Part shown: piece by piece, positions 15,892 through 46,837 of the stretch
Layout: each line of letters opens with the position of its first letter
Numbering within the stretch: position 1 is the first letter of the stretch
From: Candidatus Bathyarchaeota archaeon
GTDB taxonomy: Archaea > Thermoproteota > Bathyarchaeia > Bathyarchaeales > Bathycorpusculaceae
DNA: 64,000 bases
Direction: 5' to 3'
Assembly: GCA_963702095.1 (NCBI GenBank)
Contig: OY969706.1
Span: forward strand, 2,368,001 to 2,432,000
Position numbers and translations under genes: made by a program
Notes under the pieces: generated by a model
Seen by the model: the letters and a program-made list of their open reading frames with translations, nothing else
What the model was told of the DNA's origin: nothing
The model's database searches: none

Positions 15892-15951
15892 TTTTTAAAG
15901 GTTGCGACTTTTTTGTTACTTAATAAGCTTTAAATGTCTTATTTGGGACAT
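15892..15951 (-). promoter_or_regulatory. argG promoter: two 18-bp boxes 30 bp apart followed by TATA (TTTAAAAA)
   Basis: Perfect palindrome TAAATGTC-N8-GACATTTA at 15931-15954; 44/60 ungapped identity to the lysW upstream region. Confidence 0.75.
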
Positions 15952-16045
15952 TTATCAGAAGAGTTTACGGTTCATTTCCTTAGTATTTAGTGGCTGCTCA
16001 ACCCTGTTTTTCCAAACAAAAGAATTTGAAGAAAAAGAAACTGGA

Positions 16046-16189
16046 TTACTGCTCTTTTGATTCAGATTTCATATCCCTCGGTTTCTTTCTCTCGGAAATT
16101 AGACCTACTGGATTCTTAGCTTTCCTTTCCAAATAAGCAGCATATTGCTCTGGCGTAAAGTCTTTCCTAAACTTATGTTCTTTACCCAA
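16046..16189 (-). CDS. Small charged hypothetical protein (47 aa)
   Basis: TTG start with AGGAG upstream; MGKEHKFRKDFTPEQYAAYLERKAKNPVGLISERKKPRDMKSESKEQ*. Confidence 0.5.
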   Translation of the reverse strand: MGKEHKFRKDFTPEQYAAYLERKAKNPVGLISERKKPRDMKSESKEQ

Positions 16190-16224
16190 ATTTTGTTTCT
16201 CCTGCGCCGCTGCCACCTAAATGC

Positions 16225-16401
16225 TCAAACTAGGGATGATGTCTTGCTATATCTAAATTTTACCGCAATAAACAGCGTCGCAACAAGCAAAGGCACAATA
16301 GCCAACCAAGATAACTCTGGAACGGAAGGAGATGGATTCGATATTAAGGTTGGATTAGGTAATATATTAGCGGTCGGGATAATGATGCTCTGAGTAGTTC
16401 T
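16225..16401 (-). pseudogene. Orphan C-terminal anchor fragment (VPEL motif, TM helix, basic tail)
   Basis: Translates RTTQSIIIP...SPSVPELSWLAIVPLLVATLFIAVKFRYSKTSSLV* with no start codon. Confidence 0.6.
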
Positions 16402-17218
16402 AAGGTGGTGGGGGCGGAGGAAAAGGTCGTCCGTTAATCAAACTATCGGTCTTTCGCCGTTTTATAATTAATAAACAAATAACAATAATCAAAACTGCAA
16501 AGATTAGGAAAGCTAAAATCAATAGAAAAATTATATCCGATGAAAAGAGACTTGCCCACCCTAATGTTAATGTCTGAGTGTCACTCCAACCGCTATCTGC
16601 ATATGAGACAAAATCCACTCCTGTTGGATACAGGAAAGCATAAGTTGTATATTGATAGCCAAAACTTGCTTCAACTTGAAAGTCTTCTTGACCGCCTGCT
16701 GGAATATAGACGTCAGCATACCCCATAATTATGTCGTTTGGGGAGCCTATAACTAAAGTCACAACTGTGTAATCGGAAGTTGATGCAAATACTCGAGTGA
16801 AAGAATTACCACCTTCATAAGTCGCTGTTGAAGTCCAAGGAACATTAGACGACCACCAATAATCCGAAAAGTGTCCCTTGGTGCGGATTGTATAGTACAT
16901 TTTCTCCACAGTACCGTTTGCCAAAGTAACAGATGTTAACGGGGGATTTACTATCTTTATGTCAACAGTTTCGTTTTTCACATACTGACCGCCACTTGTG
17001 TGGGTTAGTTGTTGACCTGAGAAAGGGTCTGTTGTTTGCGTTGTAGTAATTGGAGCCGTGTAAGAACGGTCGACAAATGTAACCGTAAACTCAGGAACAG
17101 ATGGTTTAGGTATTGTTTGAGCATTTGTAGGTTTAACTGTTAACAGGGTCAGACATGACATAGCGATGATTAAAGTTAGTAGTAATGCGAGAGTCTTGCT
17201 GATTTTACCCATATCCAA
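16400..17218 (-). CDS. Secreted, membrane-anchored hypothetical protein (PKPSVPEFT-type N-terminus)
   Basis: Signal peptide, Thr/Tyr-rich beta domain, C-terminal TM helix plus KRRK; AT-rich relative to flanks. Confidence 0.8.
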   Translation of the reverse strand: MDMGKISKTLALLLTLIIAMSCLTLLTVKPTNAQTIPKPSVPEFTVTFVDRSYTAPITTTQTTDPFSGQQLTHTSGGQYVKNETVDIKIVNPPLTSVTLANGTVEKMYYTIRTKGHFSDYWWSSNVPWTSTATYEGGNSFTRVFASTSDYTVVTLVIGSPNDIIMGYADVYIPAGGQEDFQVEASFGYQYTTYAFLYPTGVDFVSYADSGWSDTQTLTLGWASLFSSDIIFLLILAFLIFAVLIIVICLLIIKRRKTDSLINGRPFPPPPPP

Positions 17219-17289
17219 TTATTGACTATAGAAGCGATTAATAGTTTACTCAAATGGCTGCCTTTGAAGGCGACTCAACCGGGGCATTA

Positions 17290-17319
17290 AATAAGCTTTA
17301 AATGTTCCAATTGATACAT
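17290..17319 (+). promoter_or_regulatory. BRE/TATA of the ACT-domain gene followed directly by an ATGT-N10-ACAT box
   Basis: AATAAGCTTTAAATGTTCCAATTGATACAT; first 16 nt identical to 15922-15937. Confidence 0.65.
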
Positions 17320-17331
17320 CAAAGAAACATT

Positions 17332-17910
17332 ATGACAGTCGCCCAAAACGTCCGAAACCACCTCAGAAACAAGCCGTATCTTCTCGAAGCACTAGAAAAG
17401 GGCATCGTTAACCTAAGTGAGCTTTCAAGGCAGCTGCAGACGGAACTAAAAAGTGAAGATACAAGCGCCATAAAAGCCGCCCTGCGCCGCTACAGCGAAG
17501 AACTCCAGAAGCACCGCCAAAAGAGAGAGGAAAAAGTTTTGGCGCTCCTTAGACGTAGCGGCATAGCAGTCTACGACCGCAAATCAGTAATGATAACTGG
17601 AAAAGAGCTCGAAACCAAAACAGGCATGAAAGTGGATTTGCTCGACAAGTACGTTTACCTCTTGGACCGAAGCGATTTGCCCGAGCGAATTTCTTCGTTG
17701 GTTAAGCATGAGAACTGCACGATGATTGTGGTGCATTCCCCCGAGGAGTTGGAGAATACACCGGGGGTCGTCGCTTTTCTGGCTACGCTATTGGCGGAGC
17801 AGAACGTGAACATCGTCGAGTTCATTTCCTGCTGGACAGAAACCATAATGGTGGTTGAGAAGAAGGATAGCCTCAAAACCTACGAGGTACTATCAAACCT
17901 AGTCGGCTAA
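17332..17910 (+). CDS. Archaeal ACT-domain protein with helical (HTH-like) N-terminus; putative amino-acid-responsive regulator
   Basis: IVNLSELSR..AIKAALRRY N-terminus; TPGVVAFLATLLAEQNVNIVEFISCWTE ACT signature; start placed at ATG 17332, about 30 nt after TATA. Confidence 0.8.
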   Translation: MTVAQNVRNHLRNKPYLLEALEKGIVNLSELSRQLQTELKSEDTSAIKAALRRYSEELQKHRQKREEKVLALLRRSGIAVYDRKSVMITGKELETKTGMKVDLLDKYVYLLDRSDLPERISSLVKHENCTMIVVHSPEELENTPGVVAFLATLLAEQNVNIVEFISCWTETIMVVEKKDSLKTYEVLSNLVG

Positions 17911-17923
17911 GGGTAATGAGCGT

Positions 17924-18331
17924 TTAGTGGATTCTTTCAGTTAAACCGTCGAAGCCATGGTCAAAGCTCATTATCTGTTTTATGCCTCGACTCTCCATCA
18001 ATGCTAAAGAGTTACAGTCGGTAAAGCTAAGGGGTTTATCTTTAAAGTCCCTGAATTTTTTCCATGTATGATTAAATGCATCCTCTGTTACCCATATTTT
18101 AGTGATGCGAGGAGATTCAATGATGTATTTTCCTAAGTCGATGGCTAAATCTTTTCGTTTTGTTCGAGCTAAAGCGGTAGTTACTGCTTCATCGATGATG
18201 TAGTCGGATGTGAATATTGCCCCAAAATCGCCATTTAGGGCTTGCTTGAAGAGTTCTCTGGCTCTTGAGTGATGGTTGTCAACGCTGTTGTTTAATGCAA
18301 CAAAAATGCCGGTATCAACAAAAACAGCCAT
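17924..18331 (-). CDS. vapC: PIN-domain toxin (VapC family)
   Basis: VFVDTG, IIDEAVT, LSFTDC, SFDHGF acidic PIN residues. Confidence 0.92.
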   Translation of the reverse strand: MAVFVDTGIFVALNNSVDNHHSRARELFKQALNGDFGAIFTSDYIIDEAVTTALARTKRKDLAIDLGKYIIESPRITKIWVTEDAFNHTWKKFRDFKDKPLSFTDCNSLALMESRGIKQIMSFDHGFDGLTERIH

Positions 18332-18340
18332 GGTTATCTA

Positions 18341-18613
18341 TCAACCGTAGAGTACTTCGTCGATTTTTTCTGACGCGTCTTTTACGCCCCAGTTTTTGGG
18401 TTTCTCAAGTAAGTTCCAGGCGGGGTCTTCTTCTAAGGGGGGAAGTGCTTGGAACTGTTGCATGAATTCCTCTTCGTCTTCTAGCGCGTGGTCTATCATT
18501 GCGCCGACGGCTTCTTGTATGGTTACTTTTTTGCCTTCACGGAGGTATAGTTTTGCTAAGAAGCGGTCAAGCTTTTGTTTTTTGCAGTCGTCGATTTTTA
18601 TTGTAAGTGTCAT
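18341..18613 (-). CDS. Putative antitoxin upstream of vapC
   Basis: MTLTIKIDD RHH-like N-terminus; DASEKIDEVLYG C-terminus typical of archaeal VapB-like antitoxins; adjacent to PIN gene. Confidence 0.75.
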   Translation of the reverse strand: MTLTIKIDDCKKQKLDRFLAKLYLREGKKVTIQEAVGAMIDHALEDEEEFMQQFQALPPLEEDPAWNLLEKPKNWGVKDASEKIDEVLYG

Positions 18614-18620
18614 AGTGGAA

Positions 18621-18638
18621 TAGTGTAAAATAACACTA
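18621..18638. promoter_or_regulatory. Palindromic operator upstream of the TA module
   Basis: TAGTGT-N6-ACACTA just before the antitoxin start. Confidence 0.5.
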
Positions 18639-18812
18639 AAATACCTTTGCGAGAATACAAATCGGAAGCCCTTGAACTGCCAACCGAATTCCACCAATTT
18701 TAGCTAATAACTAAACTCCTCAATAGCATCCTTGAATGTAGGCATCTTTGCCGGAGCTCATTGCTTCGTTGGTTATCTAACGGAGCAGAACTGCTTTATC
18801 TTACCTCTGGAA

Positions 18813-18945
18813 CAGCTTGCCTAAATCGCCACAACCAATCTACAACTAGGCACAGATGCAGAAACTGAAACGCAATGTTAACCTGAGCCTGTTGGTTGTT
18901 GTTGTGTATAGGGGGTTTTTCCCTACTACTAACAATAGAAAAAAA
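18813..18945 (+). repeat. Dispersed ~130-bp intergenic element, copy A1
   Basis: GCTTG-N10-CACAACCA..CAAC-N11-GCAGA...GTTGTTGTTGTGTATAG...TAGAAAA. Confidence 0.85.
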
Positions 18946-18971
18946 TTGAAGCGGCTTAAGCGGAACTGCAT

Positions 18972-19085
18972 CTGCTTGAGGAAACCGCCACAACCAGCCA
19001 GCAACCCAACCCAGACGCAGATACCAAAAAGCAACCTCCAGATGATGAGCAAGGGCGGAACTCTCTTCTTCTAATACTAGAAAAA
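18972..19085 (+). repeat. Dispersed element, copy A2 (internally shortened, tandem with A1)
   Basis: GCTTG-N10-CACAACCAGCCAGCAAC-N11-GCAGA...GATGATGAG...CTTCTTCT...TAGAAAAA. Confidence 0.85.
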
Positions 19086-19199
19086 TGGAAAACAGGTTGC
19101 TGCTTAATCTTAGGCTACACCAAAATTATTAATTCCACCGCTGATACTTCTCTGACTATACCCCTAATCTAGTCGCAAGTCCAATGGAGATGCAACAGT

Positions 19200-20444
19200 T
19201 TGGTACATCAAGAATGCATAAACTGCAAAACCGCCTACGACATAGATGAGATACTGTATTTCTGCAGAAAATGCGGAGACATCCTAGAAGTCAAGTTTGA
19301 ACATGGCGAGTTAGCCGAAGCTGCCAAAGCAAGCGACTGGAAAACCAAGCCGCTCTCTGTTTGGCGGTACCGCCCGTTTATGCCCATCCATGAATCCACA
19401 AAACTCGTAACCCTCGGCGAAGGCGGCACTGGACTACACCGCTCGGAACGCCTGGGCAACGAGTTAGGCATCAAAAGCCTCTACATCAAAAACGAGGGCG
19501 AAAACCCCACAGGCAGCTTCAAAGACCGAGGCATGACAGTGGGCGTCACCAAAGCCGTCGAACTCGGCGCACGCCACGTAATCTGTGCATCCACAGGCAA
19601 CACCAGCGCAGCCCTCGCCGCATACGCCGCCAGAGCAGGCATCCGCTGCACAGTCCTCATCCCATCAGGCAAAATCGCCTACGGCAAACTCAGCCAAGCC
19701 ATGATCCACGGCGCCAAAGTGCTGCAAGTCAAAGGCAACTTCGACGAAGCACTGGAATTCGTGCTTAAACTCGCCGAGAAACACAAAGACATTTACCTGC
19801 TTAACTCAATCAACCCCTTCCGAATCGAAGGGCAGAAATCGTTGGGCTATGAAATCTGTGAACAACTAAACAACGAAGCCCCTGATCGTATCGTCATCCC
19901 CGTGGGCAACGCGGGCAACATCAGCGCCGTCTGGAAAGGTCTCAAAGAATTCAAGGAACTGGGATTAATCAATAAACTGCCCAAAATGACCGGCATCCAA
20001 GCCGCAGGCTCCGCACCCATCGCACAAGCCATCAAAGCGGGCAGCGACAAAATCACCCCAGTGGAAAACCCCGAAACCATAGCCACAGCCATCCGCATAG
20101 GCGCACCTGTAAGCTGGAAAAAAGCCGTCCACGCCATCCGCGAATCCCAAGGCACAGCCGAAACCGTAACCGACGACGAAATCCTCGATGCACAGAAGAC
20201 GTTGGCGAGGGTTGAGGGCATCTTTGTGGAGCCCGCTTCAGCTTCATCCATTGCTGGCCTCAAGAAGCTAATCCACAAAGGCATCATAATGGCAGATGAA
20301 AAAGTTGTCTGCATCACTACGGGTCACGGCTTAAAAGACCCAGATACAGCGATTAAGCAAAGCGAGAAACCCATCGAAGTTGACGCTGAAATAGGGGCGA
20401 TTGAAGCTGCCCTGGGCTTAAAACAGGCAATCCTTGCACGGTGA
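19200..20444 (+). CDS. thrC: Threonine synthase
   Basis: ENPTGSFKDRG, ASTGNTS, PVGNAGN, TGHGLKD. Confidence 0.95.
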   Translation: MVHQECINCKTAYDIDEILYFCRKCGDILEVKFEHGELAEAAKASDWKTKPLSVWRYRPFMPIHESTKLVTLGEGGTGLHRSERLGNELGIKSLYIKNEGENPTGSFKDRGMTVGVTKAVELGARHVICASTGNTSAALAAYAARAGIRCTVLIPSGKIAYGKLSQAMIHGAKVLQVKGNFDEALEFVLKLAEKHKDIYLLNSINPFRIEGQKSLGYEICEQLNNEAPDRIVIPVGNAGNISAVWKGLKEFKELGLINKLPKMTGIQAAGSAPIAQAIKAGSDKITPVENPETIATAIRIGAPVSWKKAVHAIRESQGTAETVTDDEILDAQKTLARVEGIFVEPASASSIAGLKKLIHKGIIMADEKVVCITTGHGLKDPDTAIKQSEKPIEVDAEIGAIEAALGLKQAILAR

Positions 20445-20451
20445 ATTATCG

Positions 20452-21482
20452 ATGAGAATTATACTTGTGGGATACGGCGTTGTCGGTAAAGGTGTATCGA
20501 CGATTCTGGCTAAGCGGACAGTCGAGAAAGGCAAAGACTACGGGTTTAACCCCAAAATCGTCGCCATCGCAGACATCGACGGCGCAGTCATCAACCCCCG
20601 GGGGTTTAGCCCTGAGAAGCTCGAGGCGATAAAGCAGAAGGGGTACCCGATTTCTGGTGACCCAGAATATGGGCATAAAGGCATTAAGGCACTTGACGTG
20701 ATTGAATCCGTTGAAGCCGAAGTCGTCGTCGAAGTCACCCCGGTCAACATCCAAACCGCAGAGCCTGCGCTTTCGCATATCACAACAGCTTTCAAAACAG
20801 GCAAACACGTCGTTACAACCAACAAAGGCCCCTCGCCCTTGCCATGCCAGCCCTCACAGAACTCGCCGAGTACAACAACGTGTATTTCCGTTTCAGCGGC
20901 ACAGTCGGCGGCGGCACCCCCATGCTGGAATTCGCCAAACGCTGCCTAGCAGGCGACCGCATCCTCGGAGTCAAAGGCATCCTAAACGGCACCACCAACT
21001 ACATCCTCACTGAGATGGGGCAGAACCGCGTCACCTTCCAAGACGCCCTCTCAAACGCCCAGAAACTCGGCTACGCGGAAAGGGAACCATCCATGGACAT
21101 CGACGGCTTCGACACCGCATGCAAAACCGTCATCTTAGCAAACTGGATACTTAACCAGAAAATCACTCTAAAAGATGTGGACCGCGTGGGCATCCGCGGC
21201 GTCACCTTAGACAGGCTTGACGAAGCCGCAAAACGGGGCAACACTGTCAAACTCATCGGCGCCTTAGACGGCACCAGCAAACCAGTTGTGAAACCTACGG
21301 AAATCCCCAAAACCAATCCGCTCTGCGTCAGCGGAGTTTTAAACGCCGTCACCTACCAATGTGAATTCGCCGCTGAACAAACCATCATCGGCAGAGGCGC
21401 AGGCTCAATAGAGACGGCTGGCGCTGTTTTGAGGGACCTCTTAGACATAAGACATAAGTTAGCAACTAAACTACTAACGTAG
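20452..21482 (+). CDS. hom: Homoserine dehydrogenase, one-base frameshift near 20830
   Basis: GYGVVG, HVVTTNKGP / TVGGGTP, GILNGTTNYIL, GRGAG split over two frames. Confidence 0.92.
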
Positions 21483-21501
21483 ACGAAAAGTGATTTGAGC
21501 C

Positions 21502-22911
21502 ATGAAAATCGTGATGAAGTTCGGTGGAACCAGTGTTGGCACAGGCGACAGCATCCGCCACGTAGCCGAGTTAGTTACCCAATACGCCAAAAAAAACAAC
21601 AGCGTAGCAGTAGTTGTTTCTGCGTTGGCAGGCGTCACTAACGAGTTAATCGAGACAGGGTGCAAAGCAAAAAAAAGCGATGAGAAACACATCCAAGCAT
21701 TCACCGCCAACCTCCTAAAGAAACACAAAGAAGCCATTGCAACCGCCATAACTAGCAAAACCATTCAAAAAGAAGTCACAGAAAACACGGAGAAAACCAT
21801 CGCTGAACTCGAAAAAGTCTTAACAGGCATCTGCTACGTCGGCGAACTCACACCTAAAAGCAAAGACTACGTGATGTCTTTTGGCGAACGCCTCTCTGCG
21901 CCGATTGTTTCAGGAGCCATAAGAGACCAAGAGGCAAAAAGCCAATTCTTCACAGGCAAAGACGCAGGCATCGTGACTGACAGCAACTTCGGCGACGCAG
22001 ACCCACTTATGAATTACACCACGCATTTAATCCGCGAACGGCTTGGACCAATAATGGAGGGTGGAGTCATCCCAGTTGTCACAGGCTTCATAGCTGCAAA
22101 CCAAGACGGAGTAGTCACCACCGTCGGACGCGGAGGCTCAGACTACACCGCCACTATCCTGGGCGTAGCGTTGCAAGCCGACGAAGTTTGGATTTGGACA
22201 GACGTGGACGGCATAATGACCACTGACCCCAAACTGGTGCCAGCCGCCCGCATGCTACCGCAACTCAGTTATCAGGAAGCCGCGGAAATGGCGATTTTCG
22301 GAGCCAAAGCCATGCATCCCCGTGCACTCGGACCCGTAAGCAAAGCCAACATTCCAGTGAGAATCCGCAGCACCGCCAACCCCCAAAACACGGGCACACT
22401 CATCACTAAAGAACCAGCGCAAAACCAAAACAAACCAGTCAAAGCAGTCGCCATGATAAAAGACGTAGCCATGCTAAACGTGTACGGAGCCGCCATGGTC
22501 GGTGCACCGGGCAGCTATGCCAGAGTCTTCGATGTTTTGGGCAAAAACGGCATCAACGTCATGATGCTGTCTGCAGCCGCGTCAGAAGCCAACATTTCAA
22601 TGATAATCAAACGTGGACTGCTGGGCAGAGCCATCAGCAACCTTGAAATCGCCTTGCAAGAGCGCGGCGGCATCGTAAGCGAAGTTTCCGCCGAAGACGA
22701 CGTCGCAGTCATCGCAGTTATGGGCGCCTATATGAAGGGCACCTTGGGTGTAGCCTCAAAAATCTTTGAGACAGTTGCCAAGAAAAGCATAAACATCCGC
22801 ATGATTGCACAGGGTAGTTCAGAACTCAACATCAGTTTCGTCGTGAAAGAGAAAGACGGGCAAGCTGTTGTCCGAGCGATTCATGAAGAATTCAACTTAG
22901 ACAAAGCTTGA
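21502..22911 (+). CDS. lysC: Aspartate kinase
   Basis: MKFGGTS, GRGGSDYTA, DVDG, two C-terminal ACT domains. Confidence 0.95.
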   Translation: MKIVMKFGGTSVGTGDSIRHVAELVTQYAKKNNSVAVVVSALAGVTNELIETGCKAKKSDEKHIQAFTANLLKKHKEAIATAITSKTIQKEVTENTEKTIAELEKVLTGICYVGELTPKSKDYVMSFGERLSAPIVSGAIRDQEAKSQFFTGKDAGIVTDSNFGDADPLMNYTTHLIRERLGPIMEGGVIPVVTGFIAANQDGVVTTVGRGGSDYTATILGVALQADEVWIWTDVDGIMTTDPKLVPAARMLPQLSYQEAAEMAIFGAKAMHPRALGPVSKANIPVRIRSTANPQNTGTLITKEPAQNQNKPVKAVAMIKDVAMLNVYGAAMVGAPGSYARVFDVLGKNGINVMMLSAAASEANISMIIKRGLLGRAISNLEIALQERGGIVSEVSAEDDVAVIAVMGAYMKGTLGVASKIFETVAKKSINIRMIAQGSSELNISFVVKEKDGQAVVRAIHEEFNLDKA

Positions 22912-23013
22912 AGTAAATACTGAGATAAAAAGCCCTAAACTTTTTGTTCTAATTTTCTATTTTGCAGTTTTGAAAAAGAAAAAAGGAAAGGGGATTTTGT
23001 TGCGGTTGCTTTT

Positions 23014-25736: not shown

Positions 25737-25944
25737 TTCTTCTTTGTTCCTTTATTTTATAGGCGAAAAGCTTTCTAAAAGTTAGCGTTTCGCCATGTGT
25801 TGATTAAAAAAGATATCGTATTTATATTTTTCCATATACCAAGGTACCGTCAAGGTAAAAAGCGACAGCTAAACTAAAAGTACATAAAAAGCATGGGTAT
25901 CACCCGTGTGTTTATCGCTGGTTAAACCACTAAGAGGTTTGGGT

Positions 25945-37121: not shown

Positions 37122-37263
37122 GTATCATTTGCTTTCTTAGCGAGAAAGTGAACAGCGACAGAAAGCACAATAAGCGGGCACTATTCATAGAATACTTAAG
37201 GAGTTAGCCCTCTGATTAGATCAAGTAATAAAATTTAACTATGTATGAGTCTCATGCAAGGAT

Positions 37264-37490
37264 ATGGCAACTAAGACGATAAGCATTACACAGGAAGCCC
37301 ACGATGCCTTGCTGCGCGAAAGAATGGGCAAGGAACCTTCTCAGACACAATTCTGCGCTTAACGAAGGAATCAGGAAGACTGGTAGACAGCTTTGGGGTA
37401 TGGAAGATGACAGACCAAGAGGCAAAAAACATTGAAGCTGCCCTTGCCAAAGGTAGGTTGGCGGCAAACAGAAAAAAGAATAACCAGTGA
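37264..37490 (+). pseudogene. Orphan VapB-type antitoxin (DUF217-like), frameshifted, no intact toxin downstream
   Basis: MATKTISITQEAHDALLRER..KE / FSDTILRL..L..SFGVW; 227 nt implies a 1-nt deletion; TGTATGAG-T-CTCATGCA palindrome upstream. Confidence 0.7.
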
Positions 37491-37593
37491 GATGCCGCGG
37501 ACTGATTTAGTTTTGGTAAAACAAAGACCGGTAAAAGTTTTCGCAATCCTCTTTAACTTGTTTTTTTCCTAATCTATTTCGTGGTGTTCTCCT

Positions 37594-38619: not shown

Positions 38620-38620
38620 A

Positions 38621-38764
38621 TTATTGGCTGAACTTTTTGCAGTTGCATCCGAGTACTGTGCATTCGTTGTCGTTTCTGTGGCTGCCTCTTGGGTGGTTAC
38701 AGTTACCGCAGTTTTTGAGCACTGTTTCTGAGAGGATTGCATCTCGGGTAAGCAAGTCACTCAT
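38621..38764 (-). CDS. 47-aa zinc-finger microprotein
   Basis: MSDLLTRDAILSETVLKNCGNCNHPRGSHRNDNECTVLGCNCKKFSQ*: CxxCxHx4H..Cx4CxCxxF; fills the glmS-fen gap. Confidence 0.7.
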   Translation of the reverse strand: MSDLLTRDAILSETVLKNCGNCNHPRGSHRNDNECTVLGCNCKKFSQ

Positions 38765-38810
38765 AACACATACACCCTGCAATGGTTAAGTAAAGTAAGG
38801 GAGAAAAAGG

Positions 38811-40640
38811 TTACTTTACTGTAACCGATTTCGCGAGGTTGCGTGGCATGTCTGGGTTTAATCCCTTCTCTATGGCAACGTGGTACGCAAGCAGTTGCAG
38901 GGGTACCGCGTAGGGGATCGGCGAGAGCACTGGCGGGATGCCTTTTGGGACTTCTATGTAGTCGTCGGCTAAGCTTTTGACTTCTTCGTCGCCTTCTTCG
39001 ACTACGGCGATTATGTGGGCGCCTCGGGCTTTCATCTCCATAATGTTGCCTATAACGGTTCTATGGGTGTCGTCTCTGGGGCACACGAAAACGACGGGGA
39101 AGCCGTCTTCGACGAGGCTGATTGGGCCGTGTTTGCTTTCGCCCGCGGGGAACGCTATGCTGGGGATGTAGGCGATTTCCATGAGTTTGAGCCTGCCTTC
39201 AAAGGCGGTGGCGGTGCTTATGCCTCTGCCTAAGAAAAAGAACACTTTGCTGCTAGCGTATTTTTTGGCGATGTCTTTGATTTTGTCTTCTTGTGTGGCA
39301 ACGATGTATTGGACGTATTCGGGGAGTTTTTCAAGTTTTTCTTCTAGGGCGTCGATTTCGTCTTGGGATACTTTGCCTCGTTTCTTAGCCAGTTTAAGCG
39401 CAAGCTGCGCCAGCACTGAAAGTTGGGAGGTGAAGGTTTTGGTTGCTGCGACGCCGATTTCTGGTCCTGCCTGAGTGCCAATGTAGACTCGGCTGACACG
39501 GGTCAAGGTGGAGCCGATTACGTTGGTTAAGCTCAAAATTGTGGCGGCGCGTTGCTGGGCACAGCTGACGGCGGCTATGGTGTCGGCGGTTTCTCCTGAT
39601 TGGCTCACGGCAAGGATGGTGCTGTCAATGTTTACGGATTTGCCGCATTGCTCCAAAAACTCTGAGGCATACACGGGGTAAGTGGGCAGAAACGCCAGTT
39701 TGCTGAACATGTATGAGGCTGCGAGGCAGGCGTGGTAGCTTGTGCCGCATGCGACGAGGAATACTTCGTTGGCGCGGTCCAAGAAGGTGGAGAGTAAATC
39801 CAAATAGTGGTCTTGTATGCGGAGTGTGTTGCGTAGGGTTTCGGGTTGCTCGTTGATTTCTTTGATCATGAAGTGTGGATAGCCTTTTTTTACCGCCATC
39901 TCCGAGGTCCATTCAATGGTGATTGGTTCACGTTCGATTGGGACGCCGTCGGGGATCCGTTTGATTTGGTAGCCGTCAGCGGTTAAGATAACAAGTTCCA
40001 TGTTGTTGATCATGACGGCTTTGTTTGTTATTTCCAGAAAAGCAGGAATGTCGCTGGCGCAGAACACTCCTCTGCCGTTTATACCCAAAACCAAAGGACT
40101 CTCGTTTCTGGCACAGACGATTTTGTGGGGTTCACGGCTGGAGAGGATGGCGAATGCGTAGGAACCCTCTATACGCCTGAGGCTATCCATAACCACCTGC
40201 TCAAAAGATAGTTTGGGATTCTGCTTCCATGTTTCCTCGATTAAGTGTGCCATGACTTCAGTGTCGGTTTTGGAGACAAAGGTGTGGCCGAGGTTTTGGA
40301 GTTCGGATTTGAGGTCGAGGAAGTTTTCGATGATGCCGTTGTGGACGACGACGATGTCGCCTTTGCAGTCGGTGTGGGGGTGACTGTTAACTTTTAGGGG
40401 GGCGCCGTGTGTGGCCCATCTGGTGTGGCCGATGCCTATGGGTCCAGGCATGTCGTCGAGGTTGAGGAGTTTGTCGACTTCGTCAATTTTGCCTTGGTCC
40501 TTTTTTATGTTGATTTTACCTTCGTTTATGGTAGCGATGCCGACTGAGTCGTAACCGCGGTATTCGAGTCGTTTAAGCAAAGAATGGATTAGGGGTGCAG
40601 CGTTGCCTTCTTTTAAAACACAACCAAATATTCCACACAT
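38811..40640 (-). CDS. glmS: Glutamine-fructose-6-phosphate transaminase
   Basis: MCGIFG, GHTRWATHG, SQSGET, PRNLAKSVT. Confidence 0.97.
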   Translation of the reverse strand: MCGIFGCVLKEGNAAPLIHSLLKRLEYRGYDSVGIATINEGKINIKKDQGKIDEVDKLLNLDDMPGPIGIGHTRWATHGAPLKVNSHPHTDCKGDIVVVHNGIIENFLDLKSELQNLGHTFVSKTDTEVMAHLIEETWKQNPKLSFEQVVMDSLRRIEGSYAFAILSSREPHKIVCARNESPLVLGINGRGVFCASDIPAFLEITNKAVMINNMELVILTADGYQIKRIPDGVPIEREPITIEWTSEMAVKKGYPHFMIKEINEQPETLRNTLRIQDHYLDLLSTFLDRANEVFLVACGTSYHACLAASYMFSKLAFLPTYPVYASEFLEQCGKSVNIDSTILAVSQSGETADTIAAVSCAQQRAATILSLTNVIGSTLTRVSRVYIGTQAGPEIGVAATKTFTSQLSVLAQLALKLAKKRGKVSQDEIDALEEKLEKLPEYVQYIVATQEDKIKDIAKKYASSKVFFFLGRGISTATAFEGRLKLMEIAYIPSIAFPAGESKHGPISLVEDGFPVVFVCPRDDTHRTVIGNIMEMKARGAHIIAVVEEGDEEVKSLADDYIEVPKGIPPVLSPIPYAVPLQLLAYHVAIEKGLNPDMPRNLAKSVTVK

Positions 40641-40863
40641 TATCTATGACCTTCAACTTACTGTATATGACTAGCTTATGGAAGGCTGAATATCGGTTAT
40701 AAGCATTTTTAACATTTATGTTTGGTTGCTAACACTTTTTTTATAGCGGTATCTGCGGTGTTTATAAGCAATCGGCTGCTAAACGGCTGCTTTCCAAGCG
40801 TCACATGTAACTATTATAAACAAATTTTTTATAGTACCTCCGAGCTATTGCCATGACCACAAC

Positions 40864-41826
40864 ATGGGCAAAAAACTGCTTCTCCAAGACAACGGCACAA
40901 CCCAGCAAATCAAAGAAATCAGCATCCTAAACGACTCCCAAGAACTAAAAAATATGCTCGGCAACCTCAGCTGGAAAATCCTCACCCTTCTCTCCAAAAA
41001 AGAAATGTACCCCATAGAAATCGCCAAACACATAGGCATGCATGAACAAAAAGTCTACTACCACATCCGCAAACTCGCCAAAGCCGGCGCCATAAGCGTA
41101 GCCAAAGAAGAAAAAAAGAAAGGCGCCACAGCAAAATACTACAAAACCACTTCCCCAGCGTTCGGCATAGAGTTTCCCGGAGGATACATGCCCATCCAGA
41201 ACTTCTGCACCATAGGCATTGATGAGCAACTGCAGACGTTCTTCAAAGAATTCATCTTTGACGGCACCTTCGACGGGAAAATCGTCGTCGGCAGCCCCCA
41301 GCCTCATGGACCCTTCAAGACAAGCGCCCGAGACGGCCACTATGCTGCGCACTTGGCGTTGTTTTTGGGGCAATTTGCCAAGTTGCCTGTAGAGTTCGCG
41401 GTTAAGCTTGACGTGGACGTTAAGGTAGAGAAGGAAGAGAAGAATAATCTCATTTTAGTCGGTGGACCAGGCACCAACCTGTTAACGCAGGAAATCAACG
41501 AGTACCTTCCGATTAAATTTATCATGCAATCCTCTGAGCAGGGTTTTATGCTTGGCGGCTTATCAGCTAAGAAGACGGGGCAGGTTTACACCTCAGATGT
41601 GTCTGGGCTTGTAGCTAAAATAGTGAATCCTTGGGATCCCTCTAAACGCATAATCGTTTTAGCTGGCAACAAGGCCGTGGGAACCAAAGCATGTGTTATT
41701 GCGTTGACGAATTTGTGGCAGAAGACCCTACAGAAATATAAGGGTGAAGACACGTTTGCGGTTGTTATTGTCGGTTTTGACTTGGACGGCGACGGCAAAG
41801 TAGATTCAATCGAGGTACGAGAATAA
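40864..41826 (+). CDS. ArsR-like HTH protein fused to a C-terminal alpha/beta domain
   Basis: YPIEIAK..EQKVYYHIRKL..AG wHTH; NLILVGGPGTN; terminal DLDGDGKVD. Confidence 0.8.
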   Translation: MGKKLLLQDNGTTQQIKEISILNDSQELKNMLGNLSWKILTLLSKKEMYPIEIAKHIGMHEQKVYYHIRKLAKAGAISVAKEEKKKGATAKYYKTTSPAFGIEFPGGYMPIQNFCTIGIDEQLQTFFKEFIFDGTFDGKIVVGSPQPHGPFKTSARDGHYAAHLALFLGQFAKLPVEFAVKLDVDVKVEKEEKNNLILVGGPGTNLLTQEINEYLPIKFIMQSSEQGFMLGGLSAKKTGQVYTSDVSGLVAKIVNPWDPSKRIIVLAGNKAVGTKACVIALTNLWQKTLQKYKGEDTFAVVIVGFDLDGDGKVDSIEVRE

Positions 41827-42260
41827 TGGCGCCAAAAAAAATGGTTGAAGTCATCCATGCGTTTGGGCACCCAAACATCCGGTCAAGTCACCCAACCACG
41901 ATTATGTTCACTAAAGAGCGGCAGGTAACCCAACGCGGCGACTGCGTGGTGGCGGTAGCAGCGGACAAGGCGGTGGCTGATTTAAGCACAGAATTCAAGG
42001 AAGCACTACGGCAGCCCAATGCTAAATTAACTATAGAACTGGAAGTGGACGGTTTAGTGGGGCAAATAAACGCTTCTGGCTCCCCTGAGTTGACGCTAAA
42101 CCACCCAGACGATTTGGTGATACGGACAAGCGAGTTTGTTTCAGACAGAACCTTAGCCGTGAAAGCGGACAAATCATCTGGCGACCTCTCAAGAGCAGTT
42201 GTGGAAAAACTGAAAAACCCAAAACAACAAGTCACCTTAACCCTAACTGTAGAAACCTAA
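41826..42260 (+). CDS. DUF371-like conserved archaeal protein
   Basis: GHPNI...HPTT, T.RGDC, VIRTS.F.S.RT motifs. Confidence 0.82.
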   Translation: MAPKKMVEVIHAFGHPNIRSSHPTTIMFTKERQVTQRGDCVVAVAADKAVADLSTEFKEALRQPNAKLTIELEVDGLVGQINASGSPELTLNHPDDLVIRTSEFVSDRTLAVKADKSSGDLSRAVVEKLKNPKQQVTLTLTVET

Positions 42261-42293
42261 CGATTTCGGCGTAGCCCCAACCGTTAAGCCCAT

Positions 42294-42494
42294 TCAGGGT
42301 TGCGTAAGCACCATGTAGTAGGTTATTGCGGCAGCAGCAGCCGTGAAGCACAGCAAACCAGCAATTGTCACTATGTTATTGCTCAATATTTGACCTAACC
42401 CTAAAAGGGAAGCAAACAACGCGATAAAGCAGAAAATCGCCAATTTCAACTCCACTATTTGCTTACTGTTTTGCTCTTGCTGAATGATATCCAT
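42294..42494 (-). CDS. Small two-TM membrane protein
   Basis: 66 aa with two hydrophobic segments. Confidence 0.55.
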   Translation of the reverse strand: MDIIQQEQNSKQIVELKLAIFCFIALFASLLGLGQILSNNIVTIAGLLCFTAAAAAITYYMVLTQP

Positions 42495-42603
42495 TGATTC
42501 TCACCGTATAGCAGTACAGTGGCGTGCGGATTATAGCCCTACCATTTAGAACCACAAATCTAAACCTTAGAGCTTTTACATCTAAAACGGCGAACAGAAT
42601 TAT

Positions 42604-43671
42604 TTACCGAATTTCTGCATCTAAGACAATCTGAGATTCAAACGGCGCCGTCTCGCGGATGCTTCGGGAATAGAGGAAGGATTCGACTTTTCTGCCGTTT
42701 AGCTCAACTGCCTCAGTGAAGCGCTGCTTGAGGTTCTCGATTGTGTCAGGCATGCGGACGAACCCATAGAAATGCACCACTCCACCCACAGGCTTGATTG
42801 CATTGCAGGCTGCATCGACAAAATCAATGGCTGTCTCGGGCAAATTCATAATGACTCGGTCGGCGACGCCACAGAGTTTGTCCTTGGCAATTTCGCGTGC
42901 ATCCGCCAAGATTGGGAAAACCCGGTTGTCAACTCGGTTGACGCTCACATTGATTTTGAGCAATTCCACCGCGTTGGGGTTTAAGTCAACAGCGTAAACC
43001 TTCACCTCAGGGCACCGCTTGCCGATGAGCACCGAAAACGGGCCGACCCCCGCAAACAAATCTGCCACCACTTCCCCCGGTTGCACCAGCAAAGCCACCC
43101 GCTCATGCTCATGGCTGAGGCGAGGCGAAAAATACGCTTTAGCCACATCCACATGGTAACTGCAGCCGAATTCACGGTGGACCGTGCTGGTTTTGTCTTC
43201 ACCCGCGATAAGGGTGTAGTCGCGGATGCGGTAGATGCCGCTTATGCCTCCTGCTTTGGCTAGGACGGTTTTGATATTTGGGTGGGTTTGGAGGATGGCT
43301 TCTCCGATTTGGTTTTGGTGGGGTTTGAGTGGGGGTGGGATGTCGATTATGACTATGTCGCCTACTGTGTCGAAGGCTTGGGGCAGAACCGCAAATAACT
43401 CAGGCGGCAACTTACCGTGTAGCGCTTGCTGGAGGGTTTCTTGCGGCTGCTTCTTCTCCTCAAAATCGCCCTTTTCAACTTGGAGGTTGAGTTCCTGCTG
43501 CAACTTTTCCAGCTCCATCTGTTCTGGTTGCCTCAGCAACGGGATAAACAGATAATCGGTTTCTCTGCCAATGCCCAATCCCTTATCGAGTAAGCCGATT
43601 TTGGCTGCTAAGGCAATCGCTTTTTCCCCCTCTTTCTTGGGGACTTTGAGGCAAACCGCGGTTCTGGCCAT
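42604..43671 (-). CDS. trm5: tRNA (guanine37-N1) methyltransferase, Trm5/Met-10+ family
   Basis: YFSPRL, DLFAGVGPF, IMNLP. Confidence 0.88.
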   Translation of the reverse strand: MARTAVCLKVPKKEGEKAIALAAKIGLLDKGLGIGRETDYLFIPLLRQPEQMELEKLQQELNLQVEKGDFEEKKQPQETLQQALHGKLPPELFAVLPQAFDTVGDIVIIDIPPPLKPHQNQIGEAILQTHPNIKTVLAKAGGISGIYRIRDYTLIAGEDKTSTVHREFGCSYHVDVAKAYFSPRLSHEHERVALLVQPGEVVADLFAGVGPFSVLIGKRCPEVKVYAVDLNPNAVELLKINVSVNRVDNRVFPILADAREIAKDKLCGVADRVIMNLPETAIDFVDAACNAIKPVGGVVHFYGFVRMPDTIENLKQRFTEAVELNGRKVESFLYSRSIRETAPFESQIVLDAEIR

Positions 43672-43678
43672 GGCAACT

Positions 43679-44713
43679 TCAGCTTTTCTCTATTCGGTAG
43701 AGGCTGTTTACTTTGGTGACGGTGAATTTAACGTTTAACATTTTTTCCATAAGCCAAATGTTGGATTCGATGTGCTCGCTTACGGTTCTGGTGAGCAAGG
43801 AGGATTTGCCTTCTATCAGCGCCATGTAGGGGACGAGCATATCCGCCAAGAACACATCCGCCGTGGGCTGTACAGCCAACTCTGCGATGAGTGTTTGGGC
43901 GGCTTCTTTGCCCACATCCTCTGCCATCTTTCTGAGTTGCCCAATGGAGTCGGCGCCCAAAATTACACCGCTGTCGGTTTGTGCCCAAAGCGCTATGGAG
44001 CTGCCCTTCTGGATTGGGTTGGACTGGTCGTTTACGATTTCGATGTTGGCTCTGTAGCCGCTTTGGCTGAGTTGGGTTTGAGCGGCTTTGGTTTGACGCT
44101 CTGCCACCTGCCTATCTGCAAGGAAGGTACAGACAGAAACGCCCTTGATGCTTTGGAGTTTGCCGAAGCTTTCAAGCTTGACGGGTTTGAGGTTAGGGTT
44201 AGGTTTAACCGTCAGGGTTGCTTCGCCCATGCCTTTAGGGTAATACCCATACCTCTGAACTGAAATTTCCGCTTCCACACCCATTTGCCTAAGCGCAGGC
44301 AGCAGCACGTTTCGGAGGTAGTTGACGGTTGGGGCGTGGGTGGTGTCTGTTCCGCCCTTTGCCGCATGTAGGTGGACGGGTGTTTGGCCGAAAACGCAGA
44401 TTGGCAGTGTGGAGAGGAACAGCACGGGGATGCTTCCAGCGGTTTCGATGGTGGCTTCTATGTTGCCGCCGCAGATTTCCTTGGGTGTAAACCAGAGTTC
44501 CCTTGAACCCAACGCTGCGCCTTTGACTTCGGCGTTGCAGAGTTTAGCCGCCGTCAACACCGATTCCAAATGCTGGTGTTTCAAGCCTGGCTGGGGGCGG
44601 TTCTCTCGGATGTTGGTGATGTGCAGCGGTTGCCCTTTGATGGCGGCGACGGCTATTGAGAGGCGAAGTATGGTGCCGCTTCCGCTTTTCTGGCTTCCAT
44701 CGATTTCTATCAT
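43679..44713 (-). CDS. rtcA: RNA 3'-terminal phosphate cyclase
   Basis: IDGS..GSG.ILR, RP.PGLK.QH, GGTD, GYYPKG.G. Confidence 0.9.
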   Translation of the reverse strand: MIEIDGSQKSGSGTILRLSIAVAAIKGQPLHITNIRENRPQPGLKHQHLESVLTAAKLCNAEVKGAALGSRELWFTPKEICGGNIEATIETAGSIPVLFLSTLPICVFGQTPVHLHAAKGGTDTTHAPTVNYLRNVLLPALRQMGVEAEISVQRYGYYPKGMGEATLTVKPNPNLKPVKLESFGKLQSIKGVSVCTFLADRQVAERQTKAAQTQLSQSGYRANIEIVNDQSNPIQKGSSIALWAQTDSGVILGADSIGQLRKMAEDVGKEAAQTLIAELAVQPTADVFLADMLVPYMALIEGKSSLLTRTVSEHIESNIWLMEKMLNVKFTVTKVNSLYRIEKS

Positions 44714-44778
44714 ACGCTTTGGCTTATGTGAAATCCAATTTAAAAATAGGTTCTATAACCGCTCGTTTATGAAAGAGC

Positions 44779-45417
44779 TTATCGTAGCGGCGAGAGCGCC
44801 TTTTGACGTCTCCTATAGAGTAACAAGCTAACGATTATGGCAACGATGAGTATTACTGCGGCTGAAATCGCGACTACTAACAAGGTTGGAAAGGTCTCCT
44901 CAGCGGGGGAAGCTTGAACGGTGAAATTTAGCGTACTAGAGCTATTGGCAGAAGATGTGTAGTAGGTGTTGCCTCCCCATATGATTCCGCCGCCAACTAC
45001 AGTGACTTCTAACTGCTGAGAACCAGACGGTATGTCTGTGAAGTTGTAAGAAAACATTCCCTGACCGGTCGGAACATCCGTCAAGATGGCAGGAGTATCG
45101 ATTGTCGAATTGTAAAGGGTGATTGATTGGTTGCCAAGCCAACTTGCTTTGTAAGAAACTGAGGTTAGGGCAGTCATTAGTGTTTGCAGACCCGGGGGAT
45201 AACCTATTGCCGCTGAAAACCAAACTGTCATATTTGGGTTATTGGGCACTGCAGAGTTGTTTGCGGTGGAGTAGACAATTGTGGGGGAATCATTTAGATC
45301 GTGGTAGGGATAATTTCCGCCATATGAAAAAGAAAATCCCTGAGCGGCAGCAAACAGCGGCATTACTAAACAAACGATGCTCAGAGTTACGATGGCTGCT
45401 ACAAATTTCTTGTTCAC
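44779..45417 (-). CDS. Secreted protein with C-terminal TM anchor
   Basis: Signal peptide, Ig-like beta-rich region, TM helix plus RRRQK. Confidence 0.75.
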   Translation of the reverse strand: MNKKFVAAIVTLSIVCLVMPLFAAAQGFSFSYGGNYPYHDLNDSPTIVYSTANNSAVPNNPNMTVWFSAAIGYPPGLQTLMTALTSVSYKASWLGNQSITLYNSTIDTPAILTDVPTGQGMFSYNFTDIPSGSQQLEVTVVGGGIIWGGNTYYTSSANSSSTLNFTVQASPAEETFPTLLVVAISAAVILIVAIIVSLLLYRRRQKALSPLR

Positions 45418-45600
45418 GTTTGTCGCTCCTTCTCCTGACCCATGGATATTATAAAAAGGTATAGCCGTATGCCGTTTTGAAGGAATTGATCAGGCAACAG
45501 CAACATGGTTGATTAAAGCACATACAAACGGAAAACGGGAGATTACGCGGGTTAGCTTAGGGGTAAACCCTATTATGGTCCCTTGTTATCTGGTGTTGTT

Positions 45601-46053
45601 ATGCGCATCGTCAGTGCCTGTCTACTGGGTGTTAGGTGCAATTTTGAAGGCAAATGCTGGCTCAACCCCCAACTGCTCAAAGAATTTAAGGCAGGCAAGT
45701 TGTTTCCGGTCTGCGCTGAAGTGATGGGCGGCTTGCTGGTTCCGCGGGTGCCTTCGGAAATCGTTGGCGGCGACGGCTACGGTGTTTTGGATAGCAAAGC
45801 CAAAGTGATGAACATTGAGGGCGTAGACGTTACAGCCCAGTTTCTCAAAGGCGCCCAAGATGTCCTAAACATAGCGAAAGCTGTCGGCGCAGAGGAAGCG
45901 TTGCTCATCGAGAAAAGCCCTTCGTGTGGCTGCGGCAGAATCTTCGACGGCACCTTCACCGAACGGTTCAAAGAGGGCGACGGCGTGACGGCGGCGCTGC
46001 TTAAGCGAAACGGCATAAAAGTCACCTGCATACCCGCCCACAAACAAAGCTAG
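45601..46053 (+). CDS. DUF523 family (2-thiouracil desulfurase-like Fe-S protein)
   Basis: VSACLLG..C, PVCAE..GGL..PR, KSPSCG, G.GVTA. Confidence 0.88.
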   Translation: MRIVSACLLGVRCNFEGKCWLNPQLLKEFKAGKLFPVCAEVMGGLLVPRVPSEIVGGDGYGVLDSKAKVMNIEGVDVTAQFLKGAQDVLNIAKAVGAEEALLIEKSPSCGCGRIFDGTFTERFKEGDGVTAALLKRNGIKVTCIPAHKQS

Positions 46054-46100
46054 CCTGCTGAGACCTCCCTCTCCCATCATCAACTTGGCAGTTTCCTGTT

Positions 46101-46227
46101 CTGCTTGAAGATTACGCCACAACCAACAAGCAACTCACAGCAATTGCAGAAACAAAAAAACAGCCGCCTGCCAAACTCACAGGAAGAAGAGTAAAGGGGA
46201 CTCTGCCTTCTTCTTAAACTAGAAAAA
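46101..46227 (+). repeat. Dispersed element, copy D
   Basis: GCTTG-N10-CACAACCAACAAGCAAC-N11-GCAGA..CAGCCGCC..GAAGAAGAGTAA...CTTCTTCT..TAGAAAAA. Confidence 0.87.
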
Positions 46228-46236
46228 CAAAACTGA

Positions 46237-46647
46237 CTACCAGTTGCGCAGTACGACCATGGTGTTGGTTTTCATTATGCCTTCGACGCGGCGGATTTTT
46301 TCTATGCATTCGTTTACTTCGGTAACATTCATGCCGGTGATGACCGCGACTATGTCGTATTCGCCTGTGACTTCGTAGATGGTTTCCACGTTGGGTATGG
46401 CTTGGATTTTCTTGGAAACTTCTAAGGTGGGTTGGGAGGGGTTGGTGGCGAGGAGGGTGATTGCTTGGGCACCTTCGGCGACGCCGACTTTTACGGTGAA
46501 TTTGCGGATGACGCCTTCGTCGGTTAGGGTTTTGATGCGTTTGCGGACTGCGCCTTCGGAGAGTCCGATTTTGCTGCCGATGTCAGCGTAGCCGGCTCGG
46601 GAGTCGTCTTTGAGGTTTTTTATGATTTGTTTATCTTTTTCGTCCAT
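46237..46647 (-). CDS. Lrp/AsnC family regulator (LysM-like), divergent from lysW
   Basis: MDEKDKQI, LSEGAVRKRI, YEVTGEYD. Confidence 0.9.
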   Translation of the reverse strand: MDEKDKQIIKNLKDDSRAGYADIGSKIGLSEGAVRKRIKTLTDEGVIRKFTVKVGVAEGAQAITLLATNPSQPTLEVSKKIQAIPNVETIYEVTGEYDIVAVITGMNVTEVNECIEKIRRVEGIMKTNTMVVLRNW

Positions 46648-46777
46648 ACGTTTGCCCCGTCTTATGTTGCGGTAAAATAATTTAACGTTTTCCATACTTG
46701 AGTTTGGGAGTTGTTGCGGTTTTCGTTGTGGTGGAGTGGGCAGGATGTTGTTTTCGGTTGGGTTTTGACTGTAAAAT

Positions 46778-46837
46778 GCGTATCAAATAGGACATTAGAA
46801 CCCCATAAAGTAACAGATAAGTCACAATGTTTAAAAA
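46778..46837 (+). promoter_or_regulatory. lysW promoter: two 18-bp boxes 30 bp apart followed by TATA (TTTAAAAA)
   Basis: 44/60 ungapped identity to the argG upstream region. Confidence 0.75.

Follow-up and report, generated by a model that had tools for sequence, protein, structure and literature searches.

The stretch analysed here (the window, 64,000 nucleotides, C1:2368001-2432000 of contig OY969706.1) belongs to a Candidatus Bathyarchaeota archaeon (GCA_963702095.1) whose genome is a single contig of 2,937,366 bp. It carries an argG-argH-carA-carB gene set, a lysW cluster, and the genes for a DUF7523-ACT protein and for a LysM-like Lrp protein; the promoters of argG and lysW share a 60-bp module, for which the DUF7523-ACT protein is proposed below as the candidate regulator. 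Window positions are given throughout unless preceded by C1. Alignment of the sequence upstream of argG (minus strand, 15951-15892) with that upstream of lysW (plus strand, 46778-46837) revealed 44 identical positions out of 60 without a gap, and the identity fell to background at both edges of the 60 bp. The original prediction, made from the letters of the window, had proposed this pair of strings with the same coordinates, strands and count, and all of these were reproduced. When the 44 shared positions were used as a query against both strands of the genome, the argG and lysW sites alone scored 44 while the next best site scored 28; the resemblance is thus genuine, confined to these two promoters and far beyond chance.

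Each module consists of a pair of related imperfect palindromes of 16 bp, O1 and O2, which have a 6-4-6 layout and whose equivalent positions and centres are offset by exactly 30 bp in both modules. Two boxes at this offset had been predicted, and their length of 18 bp is refined here to 16-bp imperfect palindromes. The argG module (15892-15951, minus strand) comprises O1 (TGTCCCAAATAAGACA, 15935-15950), O2 (AGTAACAAAAAAGTCG, 15905-15920) and a putative TATA box (TTTAAAAA, 15892-15899), and the lysW module (46778-46837, plus strand) comprises O1 (CGTATCAAATAGGACA, 46779-46794), O2 (AGTAACAGATAAGTCA, 46809-46824) and the same putative TATA box (TTTAAAAA, 46830-46837), a role assigned in both cases from what is known of archaeal promoters. 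In both modules O2 is followed by CAAnn and then by the TATA box, so that it ends 5 bp before TTTAAAA and lies over the position of the transcription factor B (TFB) recognition element (BRE); the distance from the end of the TATA box to the start codon is 56 nucleotides (nt) in both operons. The genus consensus is TGTAyCAAATGGnACA (TGTATCAAATGGnACA) for O1 and wGTAACAAAwAAGTCA for O2, with 11/15 positions in common and differing right arms, and the dinucleotide CG is absent from the O1-O2 consensus of 45 promoters.

Position weight matrices (PWMs) for O1 (b1) and O2 (b2) were trained on 90 box instances, and reversed and column-permuted matrices served as controls. O1 and O2 scored 22.6 and 30.5 bits at argG, and 23.7 and 30.5 bits at lysW. 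The genome scan indicated that only five boxes rise above the controls: with b1 at 20 bits or more there were three real matches against one for the reversed and a mean of 0.2 for the column-permuted matrices, and with b2 at 20 bits or more two real matches against 0 and 0.2, respectively. O2-type boxes occurred in the genome only at the argG and lysW operon promoters, and this genome-wide scan, which had been suggested together with the prediction, gave no excess at unrelated genes over the control matrices. Other PWM matches (e.g. C1:854016 and C1:2202466) were rejected as regulon members, since they lie inside open reading frames (ORFs) or beside polysaccharide-synthesis genes and their count is at control level. 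An RNA element was likewise rejected, as the 60-mers and the 5' untranslated regions fold no better than shuffled sequences (z from -0.99 to +1.01) and Rfam returned 0 families for the whole window.

Analysis with Pfam and NCBIfam confirmed the gene names of the original prediction for both operons, the Lrp protein and the ACT protein. The genes argG (argininosuccinate synthase, 14613-15836; Arginosuc_synth and Arginosuc_syn_C), argH (argininosuccinate lyase, 13098-14588; Lyase_1 and ASL_C2), carA (11916-13061; CPSase_sm_chain and GATase) and carB (8641-11916; CPSase_L domains) follow one another on the minus strand, and the gaps of 24 and 36 nt and the final overlap between them point to one operon. 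The second cluster, on the plus strand, consists of the lysW/argW carrier protein gene (46893-47102; Zn_ribbon_LysW and NF041070), the gene for a LysX/ArgX-like ATP-grasp ligase of 393 amino acids (47176-48357; RimK and LysX_preATP_grasp), lysY/argC (48388-49437; TIGR01850, 435 bits), lysZ/argB (49438-50256; NF010662, 293 bits), lysJ/argD (50249-51466; TIGR00707, 424.7 bits) and lysK/argE (51405-52565; TIGR01902, 299.7 bits). The gene set of the LysW/ArgW carrier-protein pathway is complete in this one cluster, with the LysX member matched weakly (TIGR02144, 92.6 bits, cut-off 275.6). The ligase extends about 110 amino acids beyond the 281-position LysX model, and this long form is kept across the family at 49-94% identity, while other families of the order carry a version that is about 29% identical.

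The start of argG was unusual. No in-frame ATG, GTG or TTG was present upstream of the SGGLDTS motif, and the candidate start is an ATA (15834-15836, minus strand) following a GGGGGA run that resembles a Shine-Dalgarno sequence. At this position ATG occurs in two relatives (L035 and L127) and in the outgroups, ATA in 21 loci from 19 distinct genomes (L103 and L104 of a sister genus among them), ATT in two, ATC in one and TTG in one. An out-of-frame ATG overlaps the Shine-Dalgarno run in many, not all, species. The ATA looks like a conserved non-canonical start codon, probably a weak one.

A third box, a copy of O1 (TGTATCAATTGGAACA, 17303-17318, minus strand), precedes the DUF7523-ACT gene (17332-17910, plus strand), 13 nt before its ATG. 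With 30.6 bits this box ranks first among the O1 matches in the genome, without having been part of the PWM training set, and it is placed directly downstream of a TATA-like TTTAAAT (17297-17303, plus strand), between this putative promoter element and the ATG. In 19 genus relatives the DUF7523-ACT gene is directly divergent from argG, and the O1 of the argG module is this same box, 10-13 nt from the ATG of the regulator gene; a conserved TTTAAAG in the inter-box spacer of these relatives reads on the opposite strand as the TATA box of the DUF7523-ACT gene. In the window the regulator gene and the argG promoter are separated by a 1338-bp insertion (15952-17289), flanked by 30-bp imperfect direct repeats (24/30 identical) which contain O1, so that both the regulator gene and argG keep a copy of O1. 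A different, non-homologous insertion is found at the same place in genome G014, where two O1 copies are likewise kept. The layout of the lysW module is like that of the argG module: its spacer contains, on the strand of the Lrp gene, an element resembling TTTTAAT, and O1 is on the Lrp side. The 60 bp therefore have the look of a bidirectional promoter in which two TATA boxes are combined with two operators.

The insertion holds an ORF of 272 amino acids (16400-17218, minus strand) whose product has a hydrophobic segment at the N-terminus, a membrane segment at the C-terminus and a poly-proline tail; it gave no Pfam match. A paralogous stretch (84% identical over 571 nt) is located at C1:402567. 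Downstream of the regulator gene (17924-18697, minus strand) lie a gene for a PIN-domain protein (17924-18331) and a small upstream ORF (18341-18697) without a Pfam match, which together look like a VapBC-like toxin-antitoxin pair.

The conservation of the module was analysed in 24 relatives of the genus and in the window's genome. Every genus genome with the lysW locus (24/24) has the module in register before lysW, and 21/23 genus loci have it before argG, as the prediction of conserved boxes in orthologous promoters had called for. The remaining two argG loci are L037, which is cut inside the module by the contig end with O2 and the TATA box still visible, and L058, which lacks the 5' end of the gene. 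The module was also present in sister genera at lysW (L110-L117, L119, L120 and L123) and at argG (L097-L100, L103, L104, L127 and L128). Outside the family, but within the order, seven lysW and seven argG loci reached only 19-24 of 44. Mean pairwise identity within the genus was 0.81 for O1, 0.87 for O2 and 0.88 for the TATA box in the lysW class, and 0.90, 0.90 and 0.97, respectively, in the argG class, whereas the 50 nt upstream were 0.33 and 0.36 identical, figures depressed by insertions and deletions because these flanks were compared without gaps. Comparison across the two classes gave identities of 0.77 and 0.79 for the boxes and of 0.44 for the spacer that separates them. On these values the shared boxes can be regarded as a real, selected cis-regulatory module, and co-regulation of the lysW cluster with argGH-carAB is well founded, since boxes of 0.81-0.90 stand against flanks of 0.33-0.36 within classes and boxes of 0.77-0.79 against a spacer of 0.44 between them.

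The similarity could in principle be a relic of promoter duplication or gene conversion, or reflect a plain core promoter without any specific regulator, given that the TATA box and flanks contribute to the identity and that box 1 was duplicated by insertions at least once. However, class-specific differences are kept across 24 species, the boxes are conserved while spacer and flanks diverge, the boxes are missing from the argF promoters and from the remainder of the genome, and palindromes at a fixed spacing are not core-promoter features; this explanation was already disfavoured and is highly improbable. The conservation of the boxes is better described as the phylogenetic footprint of two putative operators than as a recent copy. 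At two loci of the same genus, L102 (G203) and L109 (G289), carA and not argG-argH follows the regulator gene and the module; remnants of the 5' region of argG are visible at L102, and argGH may have been lost or relocated there.

The genome carries dapA, dapF and asd, ArgJ was not found in it, and the only argC-type gene above the cut-off is the one inside the lysW cluster. Since lysine has its own diaminopimelate (DAP) route and argC is single, the lysW cluster is, as far as gene content can tell, the only visible route to ornithine. With respect to the substrate, glutamate (arginine) or alpha-aminoadipate (lysine), the DAP pathway, the single argC, the lack of ArgJ and the operator common to argG all serve as indirect pointers to glutamate. 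In the haloarchaeon Natrinema gari an ArgW arginine pathway beside a DAP lysine pathway was shown genetically, according to the accessible part of PMC10433800. The claim of the original prediction that the LysW cluster serves arginine synthesis is thus supported by the DAP genes, the lone argC, the lack of ArgJ and this haloarchaeal precedent (PMC10433800). Co-regulation of the two operons and the arginine role of the LysW cluster are well supported by these comparisons, and both are very probable.

The argF gene (C1:2148654-2149562), which had been expected as an additional match, carries no box, and none of 22 genus argF promoters has one (best PWM score 2.2 bits); argF was therefore rejected as a member of the regulon. 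These 22 promoters share another conserved element, TTGCATAAAGCTTATAATTGCA, in which TGCA arms flank a core resembling a TATA box (here C1:2148560-2148600; L064 1430-1470). As this element replaces the arginine boxes there, argF may be regulated separately.

The DUF7523-ACT protein, encoded by a single-copy gene, has 192 amino acids, with an N-terminal DUF7523 domain (PF24367; 48.2 bits, cut-off 27, and 47.7 bits in the genome search) and a C-terminal ACT_7 domain (PF13840; 34.0 bits, cut-off 27), and is a candidate transcription regulator of the arginine pathway. The AlphaFold2 model (mean predicted local distance difference test score, pLDDT, 76.7) comprises three short helices and one long one (residues 3-75) followed by a beta-alpha-beta-beta-alpha-beta arrangement, and its C-terminal half matches aspartokinase regulatory ACT domains (Foldseek probability 1.0, E about 3e-3). 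The N-terminal domain modelled alone reached a pLDDT of 82.3, and residues N27, S29 and R33 were invariant among 19 sequences. Comparison of the family profile with the PDB sequences gave nothing below E 0.078, and a protein-atlas look-up of residues 1-80 returned only unnamed or DUF7523 clusters with scores up to 0.87. The source databases call the homologues 'hypothetical protein' or, by mis-annotation, 'aspartokinase', in records of Candidatus Bathyarchaeota or Bathyarchaeia.

The family comprises 2368 database proteins at E<=1e-5, and at the same threshold its profile matched 139 of 301 genomes sampled across the phylum. Among the best 30 loci, 17 adjoin argG-argH, 11 adjoin carA and two adjoin neither, one of these being the window's genome with its insertion; in a further set of 20 full-length homologues, more distant and taken from other families, 11 also adjoin argGH or carAB, so that 39 of the 50 loci sampled across the phylum do so. 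A Pfam search of 14 named control genomes for DUF7523 gave a match in Haloferax volcanii only. ArgR (PF01316) had no match in the window's genome, while the same search gave matches in 9 of 14 control genomes.

Comparison of the operators with the protein clades revealed two sequence types. TGTAyC-N4-GrnACA operators go with proteins 61-100% identical to the DUF7523-ACT protein of the window, while operators of a second type go with proteins 22-38% identical to it. In the second type the palindrome TGACCA-N4-TGGTCA shares bases with the ATG(GTC) of the regulator gene and is followed, after a spacing of about 40 bp, by TGACCAAAA 3 nt before the TATA box; at this TATA-proximal site the second half-site is replaced by the TATA box itself. 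The T regular expression matched 10 of 13 T-type loci and 0 of 17 G-type loci, and the G expression matched 13 of 17 G-type loci and 0 of 13 T-type loci; both expressions were written after inspection of the data, and 7 of the 30 loci fit neither. No case in which protein clade and operator type were crossed occurred among the 30 loci. Three genera of the same family as the window's genome encode TGACCA-type proteins, and their lysW promoters have operators of that type too: G356 has its regulator gene divergently oriented to lysW, and in G334 and G319 TGACCA operators are found at both argG and lysW. In none of these three is an Lrp gene adjacent to lysW, and G335 has TGTAyC boxes at lysW, again without an adjacent Lrp gene.

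The Lrp/AsnC-type regulator gene divergent from lysW (46237-46695, minus strand) scored 170.1 bits against the LysM equivalog NF040947, below the cut-off of 180, and its product is best described as LysM-like. It adjoins lysW in 24/24 genus genomes. [quoted passage not shown]

It could accordingly be proposed that the LysM-like Lrp binds both boxes at both promoters and that the ACT protein is a regulated neighbour or an enzyme-regulatory subunit. The constant vicinity to lysW, the 170 bits on the LysM model, the two-site layout of Sulfolobus with its response to Lys, Arg and Gln (PMC3597687) and the position of the lysW O1 on the Lrp side of the module all speak for this proposal. However, O1 and O2 contain no CG, whereas LysM needs C at -4 and G at -3 (PMC3597687), and the recognition helix LSEGAVRxR is invariant between genomes with TGTAyC operators (G000, L023, L110, L115 and G335) and those with TGACCA operators (G319 and G334). 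Boxes occur at lysW without an adjacent Lrp gene in L118-L122, while families f5, f7 and f11 have Lrp beside lysW and yet a lysW promoter without an operator common to argG. Since orthologues of 50-55% identity are present unlinked to lysW in G319, G334 and G335, absence of Lrp is not usable as a test.

In three loci of sister genera (L116, L117 and L123) the two-box module is located about 200-230 nt upstream of lysW and is followed by a second promoter, TCCGAAAACCTTATAAAA, which is preceded by a perfect palindrome of the type bound by Lrp/FFRP (feast/famine regulatory proteins), TACGAAATTCGTA or TACGAATTTCGTA. The TACGAAATTCGTA palindrome fits an Lrp site (cf. the accessible part of PMC2715240), and the layout suggests tandem promoters with separate inputs from the ACT protein and Lrp. 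This separate Lrp-type palindrome further argues against the boxes as Lrp sites, and binding of both boxes by the LysM-like Lrp is thus unlikely. The ACT protein is favoured over Lrp as binder of the boxes because of gene neighbourhood, clade-linked operators, the invariant Lrp helix, the CG-less boxes and the separate Lrp-type palindrome. Both proteins had been named as possible regulators in the original prediction; of the two, the ACT protein is the more likely binder and Lrp the less likely one, in view of clade-linked operators combined with an unchanging Lrp helix.

A sharing of the module by two regulators, with O1 for the ACT protein and O2 for another factor such as Lrp, was also considered. 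O1 stands alone at the regulator gene in the window's genome (G000) and in G014, O2-type boxes are confined to the two operon promoters, and the right arms of O1 and O2 differ, all of which would agree with such a division. On the other hand, O1 and O2 share 11/15 positions at a fixed 30-bp offset, the TGACCA-type promoters use one half-site at both sites, and the objections to Lrp as box binder hold here too, so that this division is quite improbable.

The best explanation of these observations is that the DUF7523-ACT protein is an arginine-pathway regulator of argGH-carAB, of the LysW/ArgW ornithine operon and of itself, to which we assign a probability of about 0.6 as a whole, with binding, ligand and sign inferred; that the ACT protein is the regulator is in itself likely. 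In the proposed mechanism dimers of the ACT protein would occupy O1 and O2 on one helix face, as their centres are 30 bp apart, and the ACT domain would sense a metabolite of the arginine pathway, most likely L-arginine. At its own gene the bound regulator would shut off expression through O1, since O1 lies there between the TATA box and the transcription start, which suggests negative autoregulation. Occupancy of O2 would compete with TFB and the TATA-binding protein (TBP), since O2 lies over the BRE here and in the TGACCA type a half-site is replaced by the TATA box, and both biosynthetic operons would be repressed. The LysM-like Lrp probably acts through a different site, and the Lrp gene itself may fall under O1 control.

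Given this regulator, we lean slightly towards arginine-dependent repression over activation. The same regulator and operators could instead work as an activator that binds O1 and O2 at low arginine and recruits TBP and TFB in the manner of Ptr2 or LysM, with arginine causing release. Boxes upstream of the TATA box occupy the usual place of archaeal activators, and the activator LysM uses a similar pair of sites that extends into BRE/TATA (PMC3597687). Against activation stand the replacement of a half-site by the TATA box in the TGACCA type, which suggests competition with TBP, the covering of the BRE position by O2 in the genus, and the position of O1 between TATA box and start at the regulator's gene, which is a repressor position; none of these three is decisive, and activation is a possible but less favoured reading. 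The 'co-activated' of the original prediction accordingly holds for the co-regulation of the lysW cluster with argGH-carAB, while activation does not follow, since the sign is not readable from sequence.

Several points weigh against the DUF7523-ACT protein as arginine regulator. Ligand and sign are guesses, and an accessory site covering BRE/TATA is known from the activator LysM as well (PMC3597687). Position alone cannot separate the ACT protein from Lrp in this genome, because the Lrp gene, too, diverges from a module whose O1 is on the side of that gene. DNA binding by the N-terminal domain is drawn from context only and has no support from homology, Pfam listing it as a DUF: the search of the PDB with its model gave no fold match (best E 3.8), and comparison with the Lrp helix-turn-helix profile by hhalign gave a probability of 0.07. 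For nine of the 20 distant homologues no arg gene lies within 2.5 kb, and argF, an obvious candidate for the regulon, is without a box. The co-variation of operator and protein may represent a single evolutionary switch and not many independent events, and the model as a whole is built on sequence comparison and structure prediction.

The ARG boxes of bacteria are 18-bp palindromes arranged in tandem, 2-3 bp apart. The proposed system is similar to the bacterial ArgR/ARG-box regulon in having one regulator for dispersed arginine operons and its own gene, paired imperfect palindromes over the core promoter and an end product as the likely signal, and differs from it in that no ArgR homologue was found in the genome, an ACT domain would be the sensor, the promoter has the TATA/BRE organisation of archaea and argF stays outside. 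One-component regulators with ACT or RAM domains (the Lrp/FFRP RAM domain, TyrR and the NikR C-domain) combine a small DNA-binding module with an ACT-like domain that binds ligand and oligomerises. The DUF7523-ACT protein would share with them a putative DNA-binding module fused to an ACT-like domain, while its DUF7523 N-domain matches no known DNA-binding fold or profile.

Comparison with the control of lysWXJK by LysM in Sulfolobus/Saccharolobus, as covered by the accessible text of PMC3597687, showed likeness in the gene for an amino-acid-responsive regulator beside the LysW operon, here the LysM-like Lrp, and in two sites on one helix face of which the proximal one reaches BRE/TATA. Unlike the LysM sites, the boxes described here are 16-bp 6-4-6 palindromes without a CG core, their centres are 30 bp apart (21 for LysM), and they are common to argG and the ACT-protein gene and track the clade of the ACT protein, not Lrp. 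The haloarchaeal ArgW/ArgX pathway (PMC10433800) likewise has LysW-type carrier genes for arginine beside a DAP lysine route, while that work, in its abstract, concerns enzymes and not regulation, and the ligase found here has 393 amino acids and scores far below the LysX equivalog cut-off.

A full-text literature search, which covers few subscription journals, returned 0 papers for 'DUF7523', no description of the DUF7523-ACT family or of an archaeal arginine operator, and no paper describing the control of arginine synthesis in archaea that lack ArgR. The regulatory logic thus resembles that of bacterial ArgR and archaeal LysM, while the protein appears to belong to neither family and the operator to neither type. 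An amino-acid-sensing one-component regulator at an archaeal core promoter is known; what is new is an uncharacterised candidate DNA-binding domain.

The analysis provides a concrete candidate, with a defined protein family, operators in two sequence types and a defined minimal regulon, and the LysW cluster of a Bathyarchaeia-type lineage is assigned to arginine by regulon logic. A DUF7523 match also occurs in Haloferax volcanii, an archaeon open to genetic work. In a wider view, which we consider an even chance, the DUF7523-ACT proteins would be phylum-wide one-component arginine repressors of archaea without ArgR, with a previously unrecognised DNA-binding domain; their operators would have drifted from TGACCA to TGTAyC together with the protein, and the regulon of the lineage described here would have captured the LysW/ArgW operon and possibly the gene of the LysM-like regulator.

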